Under the pieces are notes generated by a model. It saw only the letters and a program-made list of their open reading frames with translations. It had not been told where the DNA came from and made no database searches. Below are positions 76 to 63,650 of a stretch of DNA of 64,000 nucleotides, piece after piece. Numbering within the stretch: the stretch's first letter is position 1; each line of letters begins with the position of its first letter. Position numbers and translations under genes: made by a program. Source of the stretch: Bdellovibrionales bacterium (GTDB lineage: Bacteria; Bdellovibrionota; Bdellovibrionia; Bdellovibrionales; JAUICD01); NCBI GenBank assembly GCA_965203875.1, contig OZ241914.1, positions 553,145-617,144 on the forward strand. The letters are read 5' to 3'.

Positions 76-344
76 TATAAACACATTCAGTTCACAGTCA
101 CGGTGTATGTCATAAGTTTTGATAAAAACTTTAGACTTTTAATAAATTTTCGACACCATACTTTGTAATCCTTATCAAAGTCGGCCAATTTTTGTTCATC
201 CATTCAACTAAAGTTTACACTTCAGTAAACTTACTTGCTTTGTATGTGTAATGGGTATACCAAGATTTCACGGTGATCACAATTTTCTATCTTGATGTAA
301 CATTGAATGGTATAAGGCATAGCTTCTAACAAAGGCACTATTGA

Positions 345-2887: not shown

Positions 2888-2895
2888 CTAAGGTT

Positions 2896-3284
2896 AAGGG
2901 TTTTCAATTTTTGATAAACACACATAGCGAAACGGTCCGACCGAAGGTCAAAGTGAAGCTAGTGTGTGTTTATTAAAAATGTTTACCAACGTTCAAGGTA
3001 GACTATAAAAGAACTGCCATAAGGGTTTTCAATTTTTGATAAACACACATAGCGAAACGGTCCGACCGAAGGTCAAAGTGAAGCTAGTGTGTGTTTATTA
3101 AAAATGTTTACCAACGTTCAAGGTAGACTATAAAAGAACTGTCATAAGGGTTTTCAATTTTTGATAAACACACATAGCGAAACGGCCCGACCGAAGGTCA
3201 AAGTGAAGCTAGTGTGTGTTTATTAAAAATGTTTACCAACGTTCAAGGTAGACTATAAAAGAACTGCCATAAGGGTTTTCAATT
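2896..3284 (+). repeat. Tandem array of 3 near-identical 125-bp hairpin-repeat units plus a trailing partial L-module
   Basis: Units start at 2896, 3021 and 3146, and a partial unit at 3271 (aagggttttcaatt). Unit: aagggttttcaatttttgataaacacacatagcgaaacggtccgaccgaaggtcaaagtgaagctagtgtgtgtttattaaaaatgtttaccaacgttcaaggtagactataaaagaactgccat. Only two substitutions separate the copies (3142 and 3186). Internal inverted repeat: ataaacacacatagc / gctagtgtgtgtttat. Confidence 0.95.
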
Positions 3285-4169: not shown

Positions 4170-5371
4170 GGTAGAAGGATACCTCTTTTTTCGTTCATTG
4201 TTCTTGTGATTTTTTGGAAATTACTTTCTCCGTTTGCGGTTGATATTTTTTTTGAGCTAGTTACTTTACCTACACTTGCAATGCTTCGCTTTTTAGCTTT
4301 TGATCCTCCCGGAAGAAACTTTTTTAAATCAAAAAAACTGGATGATGATCCGAGACTACCTGCTTTTGTAGAAGAGGGATTTCTTGCGGACGTACTGCTG
4401 GCGTCTTTATATCCTCCTCCACCGCTGCCTCCTCCAGAGCCGCCGCCTCCACTGGCTGACTGTACTCCTCCTACAATATCTGTGTCGTATTCTGGGTCGT
4501 CTGATTTGCTGCTTGAATTTGAACTTGAGCTTCCACTACCACTAAGGCCGCCTCCTCCTCCTAGTGCTCCACCTCCACCTCCTGGAGGAGTGAATGATCC
4601 TGAGCCTTGTTGAGAAGAAGCGGAATCAAATTGATTTTCATCTTCAAAAAATTGATTGTCTCTGTAGTTGTCGTCAAATCCGCCTAAGTTGGGGTTTGGT
4701 ATATCGCCCCCTGCATCGTTGCATTGGACTGAGTTTGGATCTCTTAGACAGATGCAGTCTTTTTTATAAAAGTGTTCCGGTCTGTGGCAATCTTCTGTGG
4801 TAAAGTTTCTCTTTAGCGTGTTGGCTGACGCACCTGCATCTATTTGTTTGCAAGAGTCGTTTAGTTGTTTAAAGTTTAGTGCATTTGCTGCCATTTGTAC
4901 TAGCAGTTTATTTCTTTCTTGTCCCAGGTCGTTGCATGCTCCTAGGTGCGGTACGTTAGCTGCTACTGTTTCGTCACAGATTTGTCTACAAGCTCTTATT
5001 ACTCTTTCGCATTGAACTCCTATTACTGCATTGACTGTACCTGATATTCCTGCACTTGATTTCATAAAGTTACAGGTTTTTTTCATATCACCGGTTCCAA
5101 ACACTCTGGACATACCTGACAGTAGGGTTACCGCAAGGCTTATATCTGATCCGTCCGCACACCATCTTTGTGCTCTTTGTCTGGCACATGCACAAGGGTC
5201 CCCAACACATCCGTCCTGTTTAGGTGATTCTGGTGGCACAAGCATAGATGTAGATGTAGGTATGGGTGTGGGTATAGATTCTGATAGTGAAATAGAGGGC
5301 AAAAATAAAATTATGGTTAAAATGGCAAACTTATTCATATCTAGAATCCTACTGGGCTTTTCGGTAGGCAT
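4166..5371 (-). CDS. Secreted Cys-rich protein with a long Gly/Ser low-complexity region
   Basis: 401-aa ORF. The likely start is the internal Met at 5338 (MNKFAILTIILFLPSISLS signal). It has many Cys residues in the N-terminal half and GGGGGALGGGGGLSGSGSSSS / GGGGSGGGSGGGG tracts in the C-terminal half. Confidence 0.5.
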   Translation of the reverse strand: MPTEKPSRILDMNKFAILTIILFLPSISLSESIPTPIPTSTSMLVPPESPKQDGCVGDPCACARQRAQRWCADGSDISLAVTLLSGMSRVFGTGDMKKTCNFMKSSAGISGTVNAVIGVQCERVIRACRQICDETVAANVPHLGACNDLGQERNKLLVQMAANALNFKQLNDSCKQIDAGASANTLKRNFTTEDCHRPEHFYKKDCICLRDPNSVQCNDAGGDIPNPNLGGFDDNYRDNQFFEDENQFDSASSQQGSGSFTPPGGGGGALGGGGGLSGSGSSSSNSSSKSDDPEYDTDIVGGVQSASGGGGSGGGSGGGGYKDASSTSARNPSSTKAGSLGSSSSFFDLKKFLPGGSKAKKRSIASVGKVTSSKKISTANGESNFQKITRTMNEKRGILLP

Positions 5372-8004: not shown

Positions 8005-9110
8005 TTACTGCATGCTGGAGTGCCGCTGACGTTTGAGTTTACTCACTCTTTGCTTAGAAACTCCAACTAATTTAGCAATATCAGACACGCTCACCTTATT
8101 TTTTAACATGTTTAGTATTACTTGTGTCAGACCCCGCTCTATACCCTGCTCTGCTGCTTCTTCAGCCAGCTCTTCTGCATAAGATTTATATTTCATCATA
8201 ACACGTTTCTCCTTGGACACACATTTGCTTTCTAACTTAGCTACTTCATCGTAAACAGCACTGTCATACAATCTAGCACTAGCACTGCATAACAACTCCA
8301 TACCTTCTTTGTACTTACTCAAACTTAACAGCTTACCAGCACGAGTAAACAGCTCTTTCAGCTCAGCTTTTATGCTGTTTTGCTAGTATTGTATAGTACA
8401 CCTTGAACGTTGGGCAACTTTTTCAATAAGTGTACACCTAGCTCCACTTTCGGCCTATAGCCTAATCGTTTCGCTAGTGTACGCTTATCGAAAACGAAGA
8501 TCTTGAATGCGACTGTCAATTTACCTATTAATCTGCAAACATCTAAATTGTGCAAATTTAACAACATATATTGAAAATTCAACACATGCTTTTCTAAAAA
8601 TGAATGCAGCCAACTAGGGTATTCTTTCAAACCCAACTGGTTATGAAATGATAAAGGAACATCCCAACTACGGCTCTTACCATGATACAAAACAACCGGT
8701 ATCACAACATAACCTTCCTTCTTATACTGCTTATATATAGAGGCCATATAAGATAATAGCTGGTAATGTACGTACTTATCTTTACTACTTTTGTGCTCAA
8801 TCAACACAAACACTCTTATTTTAACTTCTTGTAACAACAAACGAAAACACCATGTCTGCTATCGTTTCACCTGACGTGCCTACAAACGTACCAGATTCTA
8901 TTTTGAGACTTTTTTTATTCATCTTTGCAAGAATAGAACTAGGCAAGATTAAGCTCAATAATTCTAAAGCATACTTAGGACTACTCAGAAAAACATCCTA
9001 ACTATCTGATCACTTCTTTTAGTTGATTCTCTTTTTTTAGCTTTATGCTTAACGATAGGTTTGGTTACTTTTGACTTCTTGGTTTTATTTTTTGTCAGTT
9101 TCTTTTTCAT
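8005..9110 (-). pseudogene. Decayed Rpn/YhgA-like (PD-(D/E)XK, transposase_31-type) recombination-promoting nuclease gene
   Basis: Three frame fragments on the minus strand reconstruct one protein. (1) ATG at 9110: MKKKLTKNK...RSDQIVR, then a frameshift. (2) DVFLSSPKYALELLSLILPSSILAKMNKKSLKIESGTFVGTSGETIADMVFSF, then a stop near 8822. (3) VKIRVFVLIEHKSS...VIPVVLYHGKS (the hhhhEHxS core typical of the family), which runs into a repeat unit at 8504-8382. After the repeat comes KAELKELF...AEQGIERGLTQVILNMLKNKVSVSDIAKLVGVSKQRVSKL (typical C-terminal HTH-like tail). Confidence 0.6.
8382..8504 (-). repeat. Hairpin-repeat unit (L-hairpin-R) located inside the Rpn-like coding sequence
   Basis: Minus-strand reading: caagatcttcgttttcgataagcgtacactagcgaaacgattaggctataggccgaaagtggagctaggtgtacacttattgaaaaagttgcccaacgttcaaggtgtactatacaatactagc. 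The tail of ORF 8370..8840 (AKRLGYRPKVELGVHLLKKLPNVQGVLYNTSKTA) is a translation of the repeat. Confidence 0.85.
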
Positions 9111-9275
9111 AAGACTAATCATCCCAACATAACATCACTGATACTTACAAGATAAAAACACTGTTAAAACACAACACTGATAGAAAATACATATGGTAAA
9201 ATATTCCCTGTATTTATTTGAGAAAAATTAACATTTGATGACAGTTTTTACATATAAAATGTTTTCACTATCTTA

Positions 9276-9457
9276 CTTATGACCTTAGGTCGGTCTGTTT
9301 CGCTACGTGTGTTATTAACAAAGAAAACCTTGAGCTGATTCTTTTGTAGTTTACCTTGAACGTTGCACAACTTTTTTAATAAATGCACCCTGGCTTCACT
9401 TTCGGCCTTTGGCCTAATCGTTCCACCAGTGCACATTTATTAAAAACGAAGGGCCTT
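9276..9457 (-). repeat. One full hairpin-repeat unit (9332-9457) followed by a half unit (9276-9331)
   Basis: 9332-9457 is the reverse complement of ...taaggcccttcgtttttaataaatgtgcactggtggaacgattaggccaaaggccgaaagtgaagccagggtgcatttattaaaaaagttgtgcaacgttcaaggtaaactacaaaagaatcagctc. 9276-9331 matches the L-module plus the left half of the hairpin (aaggttttctttgttaataacacacgtagcgaaacagaccgacctaaggtca). Confidence 0.85.
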
Positions 9458-9530
9458 ATTCTAAAGTTCTTGGGCATCCTGGTCGATCTAAACCTACATA
9501 CAGCAACAAAAAACCAGAAAAGTAGGCCCC

Positions 9531-30678: not shown

Positions 30679-30774
30679 ATCTTACAAAATGATAAATACT
30701 TTCATGATCAACGTTTGTAAAATGTGAGTAACTTTTTCAATAGATGTAGGTTATGGAAAACTCTAGACTTTGCA

Positions 30775-30902
30775 AAACTTGTTCACCATACGCAACAAAT
30801 CTTAGTGTAAGGCTTTCAAGCCAGTCGTAGACTGGCGTACCTCGGAAAGCCTTACACTAAGATTTGTTGTATTAAAAACTCGATCAAAAATGAATACCCT
30901 TA
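30775..30902 (-). repeat. L-module plus class-B long hairpin immediately 3' of rpoN
   Basis: Minus-strand reading directly after the rpoN TAG: TAAGGGTATTCATTTTTGATcgagtttttaatacaac…. A perfect 25-bp inverted repeat follows (30793-30817 caacaaatcttagtgtaaggctttc / 30845-30869 gaaagccttacactaagatttgttg) enclosing an inner hairpin ccagtc-gta-gactgg. Confidence 0.85.
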
Positions 30903-41214: not shown

Positions 41215-42513
41215 ATGAATTTTAATCTTAAATATGAATCACCATTTGATTTGAAAGTAACCTCCTCGGTGCCTTCTTCCAAGATAGACAGCATGTTCAA
41301 TGAAATTTACGCTGCTTTAGCACAGAATACTCAAGTTAAAGGCTTTAGAAAAAAGAAAATTCCAATCAATATAATAAAGACCAATTTTTCTAACAGAGCT
41401 AAAATTGAAGTATTCAAAACCTTAACCAACCAAGTTTATGGTCACTTAAGCAGCCAGCGTATAAATATCATTGAACTAACAGACGATCTATCCTCATATA
41501 CCCCTATGCCCGAAGAAGGAAAAGAGTATAAATTTACCCTGTCATTCAAGGTACAACCTATGCCAAAAATAAAAAGTAAAATAACAGGCATGGTACTAGA
41601 TAAACCTAACATCTCAACTATCACTCAAGAGGATATCCAAAGACAAATAGACATCTATAGAAGAGCAGGGAATAGTAAACAAATAGTAGAAAATAGAACA
41701 GTACAAGATTACGATATAATAGTTGCAGACATTTTGGTCGAATTAGATGGTATTTATTCCAAAGTTTTATCTAAAACTCCAGGTGCAATTCATCTAACCA
41801 AACAATCATGCCCACAAGAAATGATTGATGGTTTAATAGGTATGAAACTATCAGAAACCAGAACAATTAACCTCAACCCTAAAAGTGATCCTGACACCTA
41901 CATTGATAGAGTTAAAAGAAAATACACTGTCAAGTTATATAAGATAGTTGAGATTTCTGCATCTCAATTGGACGACAATCTTGCTAAAAAATTTAACTTA
42001 GACACTGTAGCATCTTTAAAAGATCAAGCTAGAAAAATGGTTGAGTTTGAAAATTCTATTATTACTAGGGATAATTTAAAAAAACAAATATGCGATATAT
42101 TACTAAAAGAACAAACTTTCGAAGTAGCTCCAAAGGATGTTGAAGCACAAAAGAATCTACTAAAACTTAATCTAAGTCAGAGTATGCAGATGTATGGAGT
42201 AACAAATAATGAAATAGAAAAACAATTAAAAAATATGGAAAATGAACTAGAAAAAAAGAGTTTAAACAAATGTAGTCTGGAGCTTATTATATCACAAATA
42301 ATAGCAGAGCTTGGAATAACAGTGACTGATCGAGATATAGAAGAACAAATAAGACAGATACATCTTAGAGAGGGTATTCCATTATCAAACCTTAAAAAAA
42401 GATACTCTAACAAGCAGGCCAGGTTTTCTTTGGAATTTTCTATAGCAAAAGAACGAGCCTTTGACCATATAATATCCAATGCTAAATTTAATCAAGATTC
42501 ATCTGGTGTATAA
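41215..42513 (+). CDS. tig: Trigger factor
   Basis: 432 aa. It has the N-terminal ribosome-binding signature VKGFRKKKIPINII (GFRxGxxP-like), a central FKBP-like region and a C-terminal helical arm region. Confidence 0.8.
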   Translation: MNFNLKYESPFDLKVTSSVPSSKIDSMFNEIYAALAQNTQVKGFRKKKIPINIIKTNFSNRAKIEVFKTLTNQVYGHLSSQRINIIELTDDLSSYTPMPEEGKEYKFTLSFKVQPMPKIKSKITGMVLDKPNISTITQEDIQRQIDIYRRAGNSKQIVENRTVQDYDIIVADILVELDGIYSKVLSKTPGAIHLTKQSCPQEMIDGLIGMKLSETRTINLNPKSDPDTYIDRVKRKYTVKLYKIVEISASQLDDNLAKKFNLDTVASLKDQARKMVEFENSIITRDNLKKQICDILLKEQTFEVAPKDVEAQKNLLKLNLSQSMQMYGVTNNEIEKQLKNMENELEKKSLNKCSLELIISQIIAELGITVTDRDIEEQIRQIHLREGIPLSNLKKRYSNKQARFSLEFSIAKERAFDHIISNAKFNQDSSGV

Positions 42514-43642
42514 CGTGACTTCCATTAATTTTGAAAAATTATCTAAATTTGAAATAAAACTAAAGGTTACTTTGTCTAAAAAAGAGCTTACCAGTTCAAA
42601 CAATAAAGGAAAAAAATCTAAAAATTTAAAAAACAACGATTATAAAACAGCTATAGTCAGTAATCTTCAAAAGATTGTGTGTAATGAATTTCTGGTTAAA
42701 AATAATATGGCTCCTACAGGTTTTGCAAAACTTAGATTCAACATAGTAGGTAATAAATGTGATGTGGAGTATACTACAGACGTAAACTTATTAACTCCCA
42801 TAAATAGTATAGAAGGTGTAAATTTAAATATTTCAAATCATGAAATTAATATAACTCAAAATATGATTGATTCTTATCTCTACAGCCTAAAAAGAGAAAG
42901 TGCTAAATATGTAGTTTTAGAAGAAGACCGCAAGGTTATACCTTCTGATCTAGCGTATGTAAAGATAGAAATCTCTGATGATTTCAATTATGATTTTTCA
43001 ATAGCTTTAGATCAGCCTTTTGAGATTATAAACTTACCAAAAGCTATTATTGGCATGCGTGTAGGAGAAACCAAAACTATAAATGATCGCTTACCATCTA
43101 ATCTAAAATATAAACAATATTCTGGTAAAAATGCACAGATAAAAGTAACGGTTAATCGAGTATTGGTAGGGGATATGCCTACTATAGATGATGAATTTAG
43201 TAAAGATGCTGGGTTTGATGATGTTGTTATACTTTTAAGTAATACAATTTCTTATTTGAGATTAAAGCAAGACAGATCCGTAAATGATAAATTAAAAGAA
43301 GAAATATGCGGCCAACTATCAAGCAAATTCCCTGTTGAAATATCAGATAAAGCGATTCAGGATTATAAAGAAATGCTTGAGGAAAAATTAAAAACCGATC
43401 TTGATAAATACAAATGGTCTCAAGATGAGATAGACAATTATATAAAAAATTCTTCTACAACTCTTACGGATCAATCCAGAAAAGAGCTTATGGAGGATAG
43501 TATTTTATCGCAGTTAGCATTGTATTTTAGAAAAAGTCATAATTTTGATTATGATTTTGCTAAACTCATGCCTTTTGATGATTTACAAAAAGAAATTAAG
43601 TATCAGCTCATTAAGCTGATTGTAGAATCACAAAACTCTTAG
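42479..43642 (+). CDS. Trigger-factor-like paralog lacking the GFRxGxxP ribosome-docking motif
   Basis: The likely start is GTG at 42515, 2 nt after the tig stop. The architecture is similar: an FKBP-like segment YVKIEISDD…IIGMRVGETKTINDRLPSNLKYKQYSGKNAQIKVTVNRV and a helical C-terminus. It has no GFR motif. Confidence 0.55.
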   Translation: MLNLIKIHLVYNVTSINFEKLSKFEIKLKVTLSKKELTSSNNKGKKSKNLKNNDYKTAIVSNLQKIVCNEFLVKNNMAPTGFAKLRFNIVGNKCDVEYTTDVNLLTPINSIEGVNLNISNHEINITQNMIDSYLYSLKRESAKYVVLEEDRKVIPSDLAYVKIEISDDFNYDFSIALDQPFEIINLPKAIIGMRVGETKTINDRLPSNLKYKQYSGKNAQIKVTVNRVLVGDMPTIDDEFSKDAGFDDVVILLSNTISYLRLKQDRSVNDKLKEEICGQLSSKFPVEISDKAIQDYKEMLEEKLKTDLDKYKWSQDEIDNYIKNSSTTLTDQSRKELMEDSILSQLALYFRKSHNFDYDFAKLMPFDDLQKEIKYQLIKLIVESQNS

Positions 43643-43750
43643 CAAATCTTTTTGTAGCTTTAAGCCTTGCGGCTTACCGCTTCGCTAATCAAACATTTGA
43701 TAAAATTTAAAGACCTTTAGGCTTTAGTCTGGCCTTGAACATAAATTAGC
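43641..43750 (-). repeat. Shortened hairpin-repeat unit plus a fragment, starting within the final two bases of the tig-like stop codon (43640-43642)
   Basis: aaatctttttgtagctttaagccttgcgg…cgcttcgctaatcaaacatttgataaaatttaaagaccttta is a reverse-oriented unit with a truncated hairpin and an L-module (rc: taaaggtctttaaatttt). It is followed by ggccttgaacat (a fragment of the R-module in reverse complement). Confidence 0.6.
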
Positions 43751-43796
43751 TTACTACATTGAAAATAAACATGCAGATATATAGACTTATAAAAAC

Positions 43797-44822
43797 ATGG
43801 AAGTTGTTAAGAAAACAGATTGGCTGTTAGTCGTTGTACTGCCTATATTGATTACCTTGGTACCTGACTTATACACTAAATATCATTTCTGTGGTGATTG
43901 CTACAAATTGGATAAACAGATAGAAGACATACCAGAAGATGTAAGTGCAGATGATTTTTTCAAAAACGACTCAAAAACACAAAATATATGTAGCGATAGA
44001 ATTCCAGAAAAAACATATAGCTTTCTTGGCACCAAGTTTGGAATAGAATGTCAAACTAATTCTGGAATAATATTAAGTACATTTTCTGATCTACCTCAGC
44101 TTCAAAAGGTTGTGTCGCTTTCTACTGTAGGTGCTTTGTTAATTTTTATTTTTATCATGATACAAATGTTTTTACCTCACAGAATGCTAGCTTTAAGAGC
44201 TGGTATATCTCTTTTATTAGGTAGCATCTTAGGTAATGTGGCAGACAGGATATTGAATAAAAAAATTACTGACTTTTTGTTCATCCAAGTTAAAATTCCA
44301 TGGGAGGAAGGCTTTAGTTATAAGTTTATATGGAATTTTGCAGATGCTTTCCAGTGGGTAGGCTGTGCAATAATAATTATCTATTTGTTGAAGGGTGGAT
44401 CTATTTTATGGCCTATAGATAATTTGAGAAAGAAATATGTAACAGATAAAGATTATCAATACAAGTATTGTGTAAGGATGATGTTGTTTATAATGGCATT
44501 TGCAATAGTAACTCTTGTATATTCATACACATTTTTAAGTGTTGTATTAGATGATCCAGGATCTATAACTGACAAAAAAGAATTTTTGATCTCGTTTGTT
44601 ATAATACATGCTATATTGAGTATGATATTTATGGGAGCTATGGGGTATATAGGTTTAATTTTATCTCATAGAACTGTTGGACCTTTATTTGCATTGGAAA
44701 GATTTTTGAAAAACTTATTAGCTGGAAAAAGTGATACTTTTGAAACCAGAAAAGGTGATTATATTTTTGGAAAGCTAAAAACTATTGCAGATGATTTTTC
44801 CAAACAGCTGAAAAAACGTTAA
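43797..44822 (+). CDS. lspA: Lipoprotein signal peptidase (SPase II)-like protein with an extra 2-TM + HAMP-like C-terminal extension
   Basis: LspA motifs PDLYTKYH (DxxTK), ECQTNSGIILS (N-x-G-x-x-F/L), GSILGNVADRI…ITDFL (GNxxDR…DF) and IWNFADAFQWVG (FNxAD). The C-terminal ~140 aa add two TMs, then HRTVGPLFALERFLKNLLAGKSDTFETRKGDYIFGKLKTIADDFSKQL, which resembles a HAMP linker. Confidence 0.6.
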   Translation: MEVVKKTDWLLVVVLPILITLVPDLYTKYHFCGDCYKLDKQIEDIPEDVSADDFFKNDSKTQNICSDRIPEKTYSFLGTKFGIECQTNSGIILSTFSDLPQLQKVVSLSTVGALLIFIFIMIQMFLPHRMLALRAGISLLLGSILGNVADRILNKKITDFLFIQVKIPWEEGFSYKFIWNFADAFQWVGCAIIIIYLLKGGSILWPIDNLRKKYVTDKDYQYKYCVRMMLFIMAFAIVTLVYSYTFLSVVLDDPGSITDKKEFLISFVIIHAILSMIFMGAMGYIGLILSHRTVGPLFALERFLKNLLAGKSDTFETRKGDYIFGKLKTIADDFSKQLKKR

Positions 44823-45270
44823 AGGTCTTCAATTTTATTTAAGGCCCTTCGTTTTTAATAAATGTACACTGGCGTAACGATTAGGCCAAAGGCCGAAAGT
44901 GAAGCCAGGATGCATTTATTAAAAAAGTTGTGCAACGTTCAAGGTATATTCCAACAGATTCCCTAAGGCCCTTCGTTTTTAATAAATGTACACTGGCGTA
45001 ACGATTAGGCCAAAGGCCGAAAGTGAAGCCAGGATGCATTTATTAAAAAAGTTGTGCAACGTTCAAGGTATATTCCAACAGATTCCCTAAGGCCCTTCGT
45101 TTTTAATAAGTACATATAGTTAAACGGTCCGGCCGAAGGCCAAAGTGAAGCTAGCTGTTATTTGATAAAATGTTGCCCAACGTTCAAGGTAGACTATAAA
45201 AGAATTGTCGTAAAGGTCTTCGTTTTTAATAAATGTTTACCAGCTCCCAAGGTAGATTATAAAAAAATTT
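44821..45270 (+). repeat. Mixed tandem array of hairpin-repeat units
   Basis: A truncated L-module lies at 44821-44840. Two identical 124-bp units start at 44841 and 44965. A third unit with a different hairpin starts at 45089. A hairpin-less L+R unit lies at 45212-45270. The first TAA of the array is the stop codon of the lspA-like gene (44820-44822). Confidence 0.95.
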
Positions 45271-45306
45271 ACTTTAAGTCTAAAGTTTTCCATTAATAAT
45301 AACAGT

Positions 45307-46770
45307 CTATTGCTTAAGGCTTACGTGGTATAGTGGAGAAAAATCTCCGTTTAGTGGAGGCTCATAATCTAAAACTCTCTTGCTTACTATTGCTACATCG
45401 GTGTTATACCACAACGGAATAATAGGAAGATCTTTGTGTACAATATCTTGTACTTTTAAATAATGTGTTATTCTATCATTTAAATTCTCAATAGTTCTTC
45501 CTTTTAATAATAATTTATCCAAGTCGTTATTGGAGTAAGAACCTCTATTTCTTCCTAATGGAGGTAGTTCTTCAGAATGAAGAGCCACCCTATAAATATC
45601 AGGATCACTGGCACCAACCCATCTCATAATAGCAGCTTGAAAATTACCAGATTTTATATCTTCATAAAAAGTACCCCATTCAAAGCTCTGAATGGAAGTT
45701 TTAAACCCTGCTTTGTTTAGTTGATTCGATATGACCTTACCATTTTCAACAGCACTAGAGCTGCTTGAGGTTTTTATAACTATATCATCTTCAACAGAGC
45801 TAGCTATTTGTTTTGCGTAGTCTAAATCATGCTTTATCCTCTTTAAATTAGAGTTGAAAAATTGATTTCCAGGAGTAAGAATACTAGTTGCTGGTATACC
45901 TAATCCAGATAACTTAAACTTAATAATAGAATCTATATCAATAGCACTTGCCATAGCCCTTCTAATATCTTTACTAAAAGTAAGATCTTTTAAATTTAGT
46001 AATATATAATTCATTTTCAATCCGGGATATTTGTAAATATGAAATTTTTTATTATTAAATTTATCCACCTTATTGGTTGGCATGTCTGATTGAACAATGT
46101 CCACTTCACCTTTTAAGGTTTTTAAAAAAAGAGTGCTTTCGTCTCTTATTACTTTAAACACAACTGCGTCTATTTTTGGTTTAATAACACTATGATCTTT
46201 TCTAGCTCTTAATATTATTTCATTTGGAGTTTGTTTTTGAAATACAAAGCTACCGGTACCTATTAAATTATTTTGTGTGCTTTTTTTAGATAAAATTTTA
46301 ACCACATTTAAATCTTCCAACAATGATGCACTAAATTCAGATAGCTCTAATACAACTTTAGGATTTTTTTCATCAGAAAAATCTGCTCTGACATTCTTTA
46401 TTATGCTCAAGGCTTTCTTGAACGGAACATTGTTTTTTTTATACTCATCAAAAGTAAATAATATGTCTTCTTCTGTAACAGGTTCTCCGTTAGAAAAGGT
46501 AAGTCCAGGGTGTAAATTGAATGTATACACCAGATTCTCATAACTCCATGTTTTGGCTGCATCGTTTTCAATTTTAAGTTTTGGCCCCATCCTTACAAGT
46601 GAATTGAAAATTAGATTAGAAATTCGTTGTCCATTTGCGTCTGTAGCAAATCTAGGATCCAAAGTTTTTGCTTCACTAGTCAGAGCAAATATAACTGTAT
46701 TTTCTGAATGCTTTTCTTTTTTTATGCAAGCTACTGCAAATATTAAAATAAAAAATATTCTGAATATCAC
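45307..46770 (-). CDS. ABC transporter substrate-binding protein, family 5 (peptide/nickel type), lipoprotein
   Basis: 487 aa with a lipobox-like FAVAC and the typical SBP_bac_5 layout (…LDPRFATDANGQRISNLIFNSLVR…). Confidence 0.75.
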   Translation of the reverse strand: MIFRIFFILIFAVACIKKEKHSENTVIFALTSEAKTLDPRFATDANGQRISNLIFNSLVRMGPKLKIENDAAKTWSYENLVYTFNLHPGLTFSNGEPVTEEDILFTFDEYKKNNVPFKKALSIIKNVRADFSDEKNPKVVLELSEFSASLLEDLNVVKILSKKSTQNNLIGTGSFVFQKQTPNEIILRARKDHSVIKPKIDAVVFKVIRDESTLFLKTLKGEVDIVQSDMPTNKVDKFNNKKFHIYKYPGLKMNYILLNLKDLTFSKDIRRAMASAIDIDSIIKFKLSGLGIPATSILTPGNQFFNSNLKRIKHDLDYAKQIASSVEDDIVIKTSSSSSAVENGKVISNQLNKAGFKTSIQSFEWGTFYEDIKSGNFQAAIMRWVGASDPDIYRVALHSEELPPLGRNRGSYSNNDLDKLLLKGRTIENLNDRITHYLKVQDIVHKDLPIIPLWYNTDVAIVSKRVLDYEPPLNGDFSPLYHVSLKQ

Positions 46771-50674: not shown

Positions 50675-50998
50675 CAAATGCTTGCTAGTGTAGTGGAAAA
50701 ACCGAAGGTTTTGAAACGGAACTAGGCGAGCATTTGATCAAAACGTTGTGCAACGTTCAAGGTAGACTACGAAAGAATTGCCTAAAGGTCTTCAATTTTG
50801 TCAAATGCAAGCTAGCGTAGTGACAAGACCAGAGGTCTAAACGTAGCTAGGCTTGCATTTGATAAAATGTTTACCAGCTCTCAAGGTATATTCCAACAGA
50901 CTATCTAAAGGTCTTCATTTTTAATAAGTGCACATAGCGAAACGGCAAGGCCGAAGGCCTGAGTATAGTTATGCATGCTTATTAAAAATTGAAAACCT
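50657..50998 (+). repeat. Array of three hairpin-repeat units with three different hairpins, between rsmH and ftsL
   Basis: Units start at 50657, 50784 and 50907. The L-modules (aaaggcccttcgtttt / aaaggtcttcaatttt / aaaggtcttcattttt) and R-modules are conserved, and the hairpins differ. Unit 3 ends with aaaaattgaaaacctc, an inverted copy of an L-module. Confidence 0.9.
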
Positions 50999-51002
50999 CT
51001 GA

Positions 51003-63519: not shown

Positions 63520-63650
63520 TGTTCATCGAAGTTGAACTTACAATGAAGATAGATGTGTGGTTTGTAGAGGCTTTCAAGCTGCCCAAAAGAGCAGCGTACC
63601 CCAGAAAGCCACACACCCATCTTCGTTGTATTGAAAAACAAAGATTAAAA
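63520..63650 (-). repeat. Second class-B long hairpin element
   Basis: It shares with 30793-30869 the core ggctttcaagc-[inner hairpin]-gcgtacc-nnn-gaaagcc and the flank ttgttgtatt[ag]aaaaac. Its outer stem (acaatgaagatagatgtgtgg / ccacacacccatcttcgttgt) and inner hairpin (gctgc…gcagc) have different sequences. Confidence 0.75.

Follow-up and report, generated by a model that had tools for sequence, protein, structure and literature searches.

A recombined array of hairpin repeats beside lspA in a Bdellovibrionales genome, and the probable origin of its hairpin-less unit by deletion

A stretch of 64,000 nucleotides from a Bdellovibrionales bacterium (assembly GCA_965203875.1, contig OZ241914.1, positions 553,145 to 617,144), hereafter called the window and numbered from its first base, contains a repeat array between two convergent genes. 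These are an lspA-like gene (43797–44822, + strand), which encodes signal peptidase II with a C-terminal extension as judged from the list of open reading frames (ORFs) and from homologues with PF01252, and, downstream of the array, a gene for a solute-binding protein (SBP_bac_5; 45307–46770, - strand). The gap of 484 nt that separates them holds the whole array, whose first three bases are the TAA stop codon of the lspA-like ORF (44820–44822). The array is made up of head-to-tail copies of a non-coding, lineage-specific repeat of ~124 bp, in which a complete unit consists of a module termed L, a hairpin and a module termed R. One unit has no hairpin, and it is probable, in our judgement, that this unit is a deletion derivative within an array reshuffled by recombination. 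The array is not a product of chance, since the window contains 12 matches to the R-module pattern where 0.00 would be expected, and copies of the repeat family occur at no fewer than eight sites within it.

The array, which lies on the + strand throughout, opens with a truncated L-head (TAAAGGTCTTCAATTTTATT; 44820–44839) that is without the AATAA stem base and is directly followed by a complete L, an order also found at L009 6102 in a sister genome. The first full unit (44840–44963) comprises L, an A-type hairpin, the R core CAACGTTCAAGGT and the tail ATATTCCAACAGA, and folds as DNA at -19.3 kcal/mol (z -3.67). The second (44964–45087) is identical to it, each measuring 124 bp with a 100% match in Tandem Repeats Finder (TRF), and forms a recent tandem duplication with the first. 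Unit 3 (45088–45210) is chimeric, as its L and 5' arm, on the one hand, and its loop, 3' arm, R and tail A, on the other, belong to two different hairpin lineages, and its arms are unpaired. The hairpin-less unit (45211–45275) joins an intact L, with the 5' half of the stem base (TTTTTAATAA), to the R core CAGCTCCCAAGGT and an A-like tail, and contains the junction microhomology AAATGT (45231–45236). Beside the convergent gene, the array is closed by a terminal L-variant, TAAGTCTAAAGTTTTCCATTAATAA (TAAGTCTAAAGTTTTCC...; 45276–45300). L copies of the same, CTAAAG, type lie at 30715 (-), 63660 (-) and 110–140 (-) in the window, and at L004 7354, SR 41140 (-) and L009 6119. An earlier note on this DNA had described a five-part array with two identical 124-bp units; that array is real, with all five parts and every quoted string recovered (the positions being ~1 nt off) and the identity of the two units confirmed at 100%, and only the sixth part, the terminal L-variant, had been overlooked.

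Alignment of 13 distinct full units (A1) yields a consensus stem in which columns 13–29 pair with columns 75–91, in addition to inner helices. Compensatory changes were observed at 17 of the 28 stem pairs, including column pairs 13/91 (AU 6, UA 5, GC 1), 16/88, 20/84 (AU 7, UA 5) and 21/83 (UA 7, CG 6). Columns 13–23 are the last ~10 nt of what the earlier note had called L (TTTTTAATAA), and columns 81–91 the first ~10 nt of its R (TTATTAAAAA); these two segments covary and together make up the base of the palindrome stem. A unit is therefore made up of a 12-nt L-head, an imperfect palindrome of ~80 nt, and an R core with its tail, and full units fold as DNA with z values of -3.5 to -4.5. The stems are followed by TTATTAAAAA and not by a T run; no terminator-like site, i.e., no G+C-rich stem with a T run as in intrinsic terminators, was found in 44600–45500, and the terminator and promoter scan returned nothing above shuffles. 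A pairing is also predicted between the GG/GC of the L-head (columns 5–6) and the variable triplet in the GTTnnnCAA of R (columns 97–98), as exemplified by 44844–44845 with 44933–44934 in the window (pair 6/97: GC 6, CG 4), although it involves two pairs only and may be spurious.

The sister genome, whose LspA is 340/341 identical and whose flanks differ by ~0.6%, carries the array in another form. Its order is lspA, L-head, full unit, L-head, A, unit 3, L+R, as against lspA, L-head, A, A, unit 3, L+R in the window. Relative to the sister, exactly the 124 nt that lie between two 19-nt L-head repeats are missing from the window, which has a second, identical copy of the A unit, the equal total length of 484 nt in both strains being a coincidence. 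The only A unit of the sister (L003 11168–11291) matches unit 2, and a copy of unit 1 is absent there. The truncated L with which the window's array begins is attributed to unit-removing recombination between the L/L direct repeats, as its product or partner, given that the two 19-nt partners are both present in the sister strain at a distance of 124 nt; nested insertion at L, which the earlier note had offered among its explanations, found no specific support and is rejected as the source of the truncated L. Contigs anchored in lspA carry the window form in runs X1 and X5, and the sister form in runs X4 and X6 (host B; X6 is a low-coverage run, patchy over genes) and X9 (host C), and this spread over runs suggests that the sister form is the older one. 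Short-word Logan contigs break inside repeats, so that the support they give concerns junctions and not unit counts. A search for RNA runs brought up these runs again, none of them labelled as RNA.

Differences on the scale of whole units were found at three of the seven sites shared by the two strains. For example, a near-identical 125-bp array has three units in the window (2895–3284) and two in the sister (L004 10728–11000), while the site at 9266–9458 holds 1.5 units and a YhgA-like pseudogene of ~1.1 kb in the window, as against 3.5 units in the sister. Substitutions between the strains are about twice as dense in colinear array parts (22/1551, 1.4%) as elsewhere (262/41162, 0.64%), and several of the array differences restore or leave the family consensus, e.g., TT vs CG at 45120–45121. 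The decayed YhgA/Rpn-like gene (8010–9010, - strand; Pfam Transposase_31, E 1e-17, profile positions 71–168 of 203) is itself interrupted by a full repeat unit (8382–8506), for which there is no orthologous empty site, the sister being without the whole gene and indeed the whole segment of ~1.1 kb. Since Rpn-type nucleases promote recombination, an intact copy of such a gene elsewhere would be a candidate driver of recombination.

Unit 3 illustrates that crossovers also fall within hairpins. It is unfolded, with z values of +0.47 in the window and -0.31 in the sister, and its own arms form a duplex of -7.8 kcal/mol, compared to -20.6 kcal/mol when its 5' arm is paired with another unit's 3' arm. 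Positions 45116–45228 are 96.5% identical to the first unit of the sister array (L003 11053–11165), in which the 5' arm is a matching one and the hairpin folds (z -3.48). The L and 5' arm of unit 3 are foreign, which makes it a chimera; the earlier note's reading of its hairpin as partly decayed is not upheld. In an arm-pairing matrix of 21 units, most rank their own arms first to third, while those of unit 3 rank 11th and those of the sister unit L004 15858 rank 13th; the 5' arm of the latter matches the 50657 lineage and its 3' half is identical to its neighbour.

Reassortment likewise extends to the R cores and tails. Units 9458 and 44840 have the same L, hairpin and core and diverge from CAAGGTA onward, while in a five-unit array of the sister genome units a2 and a4 share a hairpin and differ in R core and tail. 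That array (L005 1562–2170, - strand), ~6 kb past the window end, consists of a duplicated two-unit block with a period of ~249 nt plus one unit, one copy having a swapped R core and tail. Two R-tail variants had been reported as mixed within arrays, and all four combinations of R core and tail are in fact present. A test of recombination by the pairwise homoplasy index (PHI) over 17 units gave observed values of 0.50–0.63 against 0.80 when permuted, none of 2000 permutations being as low (p<0.0005). Recombination between units is thereby demonstrated, and the shuffling by recombination that the earlier note had suspected is borne out by the unit differences between strains, the chimeric hairpins, the reassorted cores and tails and the PHI result, as well as by other hairpin classes (HP2 and HP3, see below) in the same L...R frame.

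The hairpin-less unit has neither the hairpin core nor the 3' stem base, and retains a complete L with its 5' half-stem. As the stem extends with covariation into both L and R, the TTTTTAATAA of this unit is half a stem. The unit is unfolded (z +0.54) and is kept in the sister genome (L003 11415–11479) with one substitution, C45247T. Assemblies easily collapse tandem repeats of 124 bp, and the Logan contigs break inside the array, which might raise the suspicion of an assembly or consensus artefact, i.e., a collapsed repeat or a mis-joined contig. The unit is, however, found together with 500 bp of unique flank on single contigs of 5.5 kb in two independent runs, without a difference in X1 and with one in X4, and the junction is present in two independent assemblies, one substitution apart. 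Given these contigs and the independently assembled sister genome, the probability of an artefact is regarded as negligible.

The junction itself was examined by placing contigs of four runs (X1, X4, X5 and X7) on 45205–45300. In all four it was crossed only by the contig of the locus itself. The other genomic copy of the same L runs past 45236 into a hairpin (ACACTGG...), and in each run a hairpin 3' arm (...TTTGATA) leads up to 45230 in no fewer than six other copies of the same R. The 6 nt AAATGT (45231–45236) are common to the L-to-hairpin and the hairpin-to-R junctions of the other copies. This motif is a direct repeat on either side of the palindrome and as such a classic substrate for deletion by slippage or single-strand annealing; slippage between direct repeats that enclose a hairpin is a well-established way in which deletions arise (PMC4134008, PMC3519483).

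Partial units were catalogued in ~113 kb (the window and the sister-genome loci L003–L010) of a genome of 1.2–1.6 Mb. A second clean L+R was found at L009 6119–6178, preceded by a bare L-head and with a junction 1–3 nt from that of the unit at 45211. Three R-only remnants (L004 5961, which overlaps the hemE stop, SR ~41160, which abuts the stop of an acrB-like gene, and L010) all keep the 3' half-stem. L-only remnants occur as well, as do an L with the 5' half of a hairpin (9275–9333) and the 3' half of a hairpin with R (L004 6161–6228). As these partial forms differ in their junctions and leave orphan half-stems, the spectrum is more readily explained by deletions whose endpoints vary than by a discrete cassette. 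The earlier note had taken the hairpin for a discrete, separable module, a notion that is contradicted by a stem reaching ~10 nt into both L and R, by the orphan half-stem and the microhomology at the junction, by crossovers inside hairpins, and by the other junctions of other hairpin-less forms. A simple deletion between short A-rich repeats, which the same note had set against its modular idea, does explain the unit, although the unit is not unique, in view of the second clean L+R elsewhere.

Two other core types were encountered in the same sequences. HP2 is a hairpin class of ~105 nt with its own TTTTTAAT-ACARC leader, placed after L-type modules and in two cases succeeded by an R module; it occurs in the window at 30780–30902 (-) and 63520–63640 (-), at L004 6031–6137 and 7730–7834, and at L008 ~4590–4700. 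The HP3 core, located at L009 9880–9950 (-) and L008 ~4700–4760, consists of two mini-hairpins, GCAGCC-GTTA-GGCTGC and CCAACC-GTA-GGTTGG, with an 8-nt L-head on one side and an ordinary R core on the other.

According to the explanation that we favour, the arrays would be remodelled by ordinary recombination: units would be gained or lost when direct repeats cross over unequally or slip, chimeric hairpins and swapped R cores and tails would arise from crossover or gene conversion within conserved blocks, and palindromes would stimulate deletions in the array. In the hairpin-less unit, a deletion between the short A-rich direct repeats on either side of the palindrome (...AATAAATGT / ...ATAAAATGT) would have removed the hairpin core together with the 3' stem base and left the orphan 5' half-stem behind, and the event would predate the split of the two sampled strains. 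The molecular route may have been replication slippage or single-strand annealing across the hairpin.

Several observations weigh against this explanation. The sampled ~113 kb are only a part of the genome. The two clean L+R forms lie at unrelated loci and have nearly the same boundaries, both with the 5' and without the 3' stem base, and such near-coincident boundaries could be those of a defined empty form and not the sign of a hotspot at which deletions recur. Furthermore, the L-head/R frame also encloses the unrelated cores HP2 and HP3, as a cassette model predicts. The earlier note had proposed a comparison of filled and empty orthologous sites; both strains carry the hairpin-less form, no orthologous site with a full unit in its place was found, and the relative of ~92% identity in sponge metagenomes has a different sequence beside the downstream gene. 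For these reasons we infer, and do not observe, that the event was a deletion and that the site had not simply never been filled. An X9 contig with 92 nt between R modules was considered as a filled allele and rejected, as its upstream hairpin is unlike that of unit 3 and it represents another locus.

The same observations can be read as pointing to L+R as the primary, empty scaffold, with mobile HP1, HP2 and HP3 cores that an enzyme inserts, or precisely excises, at a fixed L/R site. The junctions of the two clean L+R forms, which agree to within 1–3 nt, the three structurally unrelated cores in one L-head...R frame, and the reassortment of hairpin types with L and R variants are all in keeping with such a scheme. 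Nevertheless, the scaffold would itself hold half of the stem, whose 5' base covaries with its 3' base, so that an insert would need to bring the complement of its target in place of a direct target-site duplication. Nor are the endpoints fixed, given that the R-only forms keep the 3' stem base instead, and breakpoints of similarity lie inside hairpins and at the hairpin/R and core/tail borders, with no single site. In addition, no filled/empty polymorphism was seen between the strains, and no transposase was linked to the family in the sampled DNA. We therefore consider an empty scaffold unlikely.

A related scheme invokes dedicated site-specific recombination of a NIME- or integron-like kind, in which cassettes would be exchanged or deleted by crossover at YAAGGT in the L-head and the R core, and a junction left without a cassette would appear as the hairpin-less unit. 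The L-head (TAAAGGTC) and the R core (TCAAGGTA) do have AAGGT in common in direct orientation, L-heads are present at both array starts and ends, and one tail swap, that between units 9458 and 44840, begins exactly after CAAGGTA. Most breakpoints, though, are off AAGGT (in the hairpin loop, in the apical stem or at ATAAAA|), and the junction of the hairpin-less unit lies ~20 nt away from both AAGGT copies. The arrays examined have no recombinase gene next to them, and homologous recombination by itself accounts for identical tandem units and for losses between 19-nt repeats, which makes such a dedicated system very improbable. The chance is similarly slim that an undescribed cassette-exchange system, acting at the YAAGGT common to L-head and R core, installs, swaps or removes structured cores (HP1, HP2, HP3 or none) in the short spaces beside genes of this host-associated bacterium with its small genome, in which case hairpin-less units would be true empty sites.

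With regard to distribution, the closest named relatives of the flanking LspA are from metagenome-assembled genomes (MAGs) of Bdellovibrionales/Oligoflexia, at ~44% identity. Near-identical DNA is present in runs from three coded host organisms, and a relative of ~92% identity was detected in sponge metagenomes. A scan of 185,579 GTDB genomes with the R-module pattern gave 0 matches, and a single match in a JGI metagenome (L001), which lies within unrelated coding DNA, was dismissed as chance. No family copies were found in 21 kb each around the lspA of L002 (79% LspA identity) and L006 (a Bdellovibrionales MAG, 78%), and Rfam 15 gave no repeat match at gathering score, the only match in the window being a tRNA. 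The family thus appears, in the sequences searched, not to occur outside this narrow lineage. Gene order around lspA is rearranged in L002 and L006: in L002 (10001–13395), lspA is convergent with a 361-aa gene and tig, whereas in the window (41215–44822) tig, a 387-aa gene and lspA are co-oriented. Because the orientations differ in this way, lspA probably sits at a rearrangement breakpoint, where the gap now holds the array.

A number of known bacterial repeats resemble the present family in part. Pneumococcal BOX elements are built as boxA-boxB(n)-boxC, their central module may be absent (A1C1) or multiplied, and their length varies between strains, which has been ascribed to unequal crossover; BOX-related families use other module sets, e.g., boxD/E/F of Streptococcus suis (PMC3049150). 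Both families are modular, composite, intergenic repeats with stem-loops, a core that is absent in some forms, and length variation between strains. However, in BOX the end modules pair mutually and boxB alone is in tandem, whereas here whole L-hairpin-R units are in tandem and the central part is a palindrome; BOX also has terminal inverted repeats and target duplications, neither of which was seen here, and there is no sequence similarity. The core of the present family is absent in the two clean L+R forms, present once in at least 19 units and never multiplied per L...R frame, and HP2 or HP3 may replace it.

In arrays of neisserial intergenic mosaic elements (NIME), short dRS3 delimiters alternate with diverse segments of 50–150 bp, and the arrays vary between strains and are seen as recombination substrates, while Correia elements exist in a full-length form and a recurrent internally deleted form (PMC1797815). 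The delimiter arrays and the strain-variable unit number are shared with the present family, and the full and deleted Correia forms are reminiscent of L-hairpin-R and L+R. By contrast, dRS3 is a 20-bp inverted repeat (ATTCCCN8GGGAAT) and a phage integration site, while L and R are not inverted repeats and no link to an integrase is known here; no dRS3-like inverted repeat was found, the delimiters being TAARGNYYTTC and CAAGGTA. Furthermore, the present units mostly belong to one homologous hairpin family, compared to >100 unrelated RS families in NIME.

REP, BIME and REPIN sequences are comparable as abundant, lineage-specific, intergenic hairpin repeats that form mosaic arrays with linkers and diversify within genomes (PMC3333891, PMC2817692, PMC3116915). 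They differ in that REPs are 20–40 nt long and alternate in BIMEs, and REPINs are inverted doublets, whereas the present units measure ~124 nt and run head to tail, every multi-unit array examined being on one strand. The gene tables, which cover the sampled ~113 kb, list no RAYT gene (Y1/HUH TnpA-REP), and no genome-wide search was made. The terminal inverted repeats of miniature inverted-repeat transposable elements (MITEs) are likewise wanting, as L and R are not reverse complements and a single unit (50906–51000) ends with an inverted L; the strain differences consist of whole-unit gains and losses between repeats and not of insertions with target-site duplications.

ERIC/IRU elements are enterobacterial imperfect palindromes of ~127 bp in transcribed intergenic regions, with shorter, internally deleted copies, and are mostly solitary and not in tandem. 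The likeness to the present family lies in similar size, a long imperfect palindrome and internally deleted copies, and the difference in the tandem arrangement here and in the lack of sequence similarity. By these comparisons, the family seems to belong to none of BOX, NIME or REP/BIME, and its behaviour matches that of such mosaic repeat families; BOX, NIME/Correia and ERIC come nearest to it.

The array is a further example of a familiar, junk-like bacterial repeat and not a new mechanism, and the idea of a separable hairpin module is largely explained by known recombination and palindrome instability. What the strain-level data provide is a view of array turnover, comprising unit loss between 19-nt repeats, tandem duplication, crossovers within hairpins and deletion of a palindrome, and they document such repeat dynamics in a reduced, host-associated genome. 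As the units supply stop codons and interrupt a pseudogene, they also call for caution in assembly and annotation, and the variable-number arrays are markers for strain typing.

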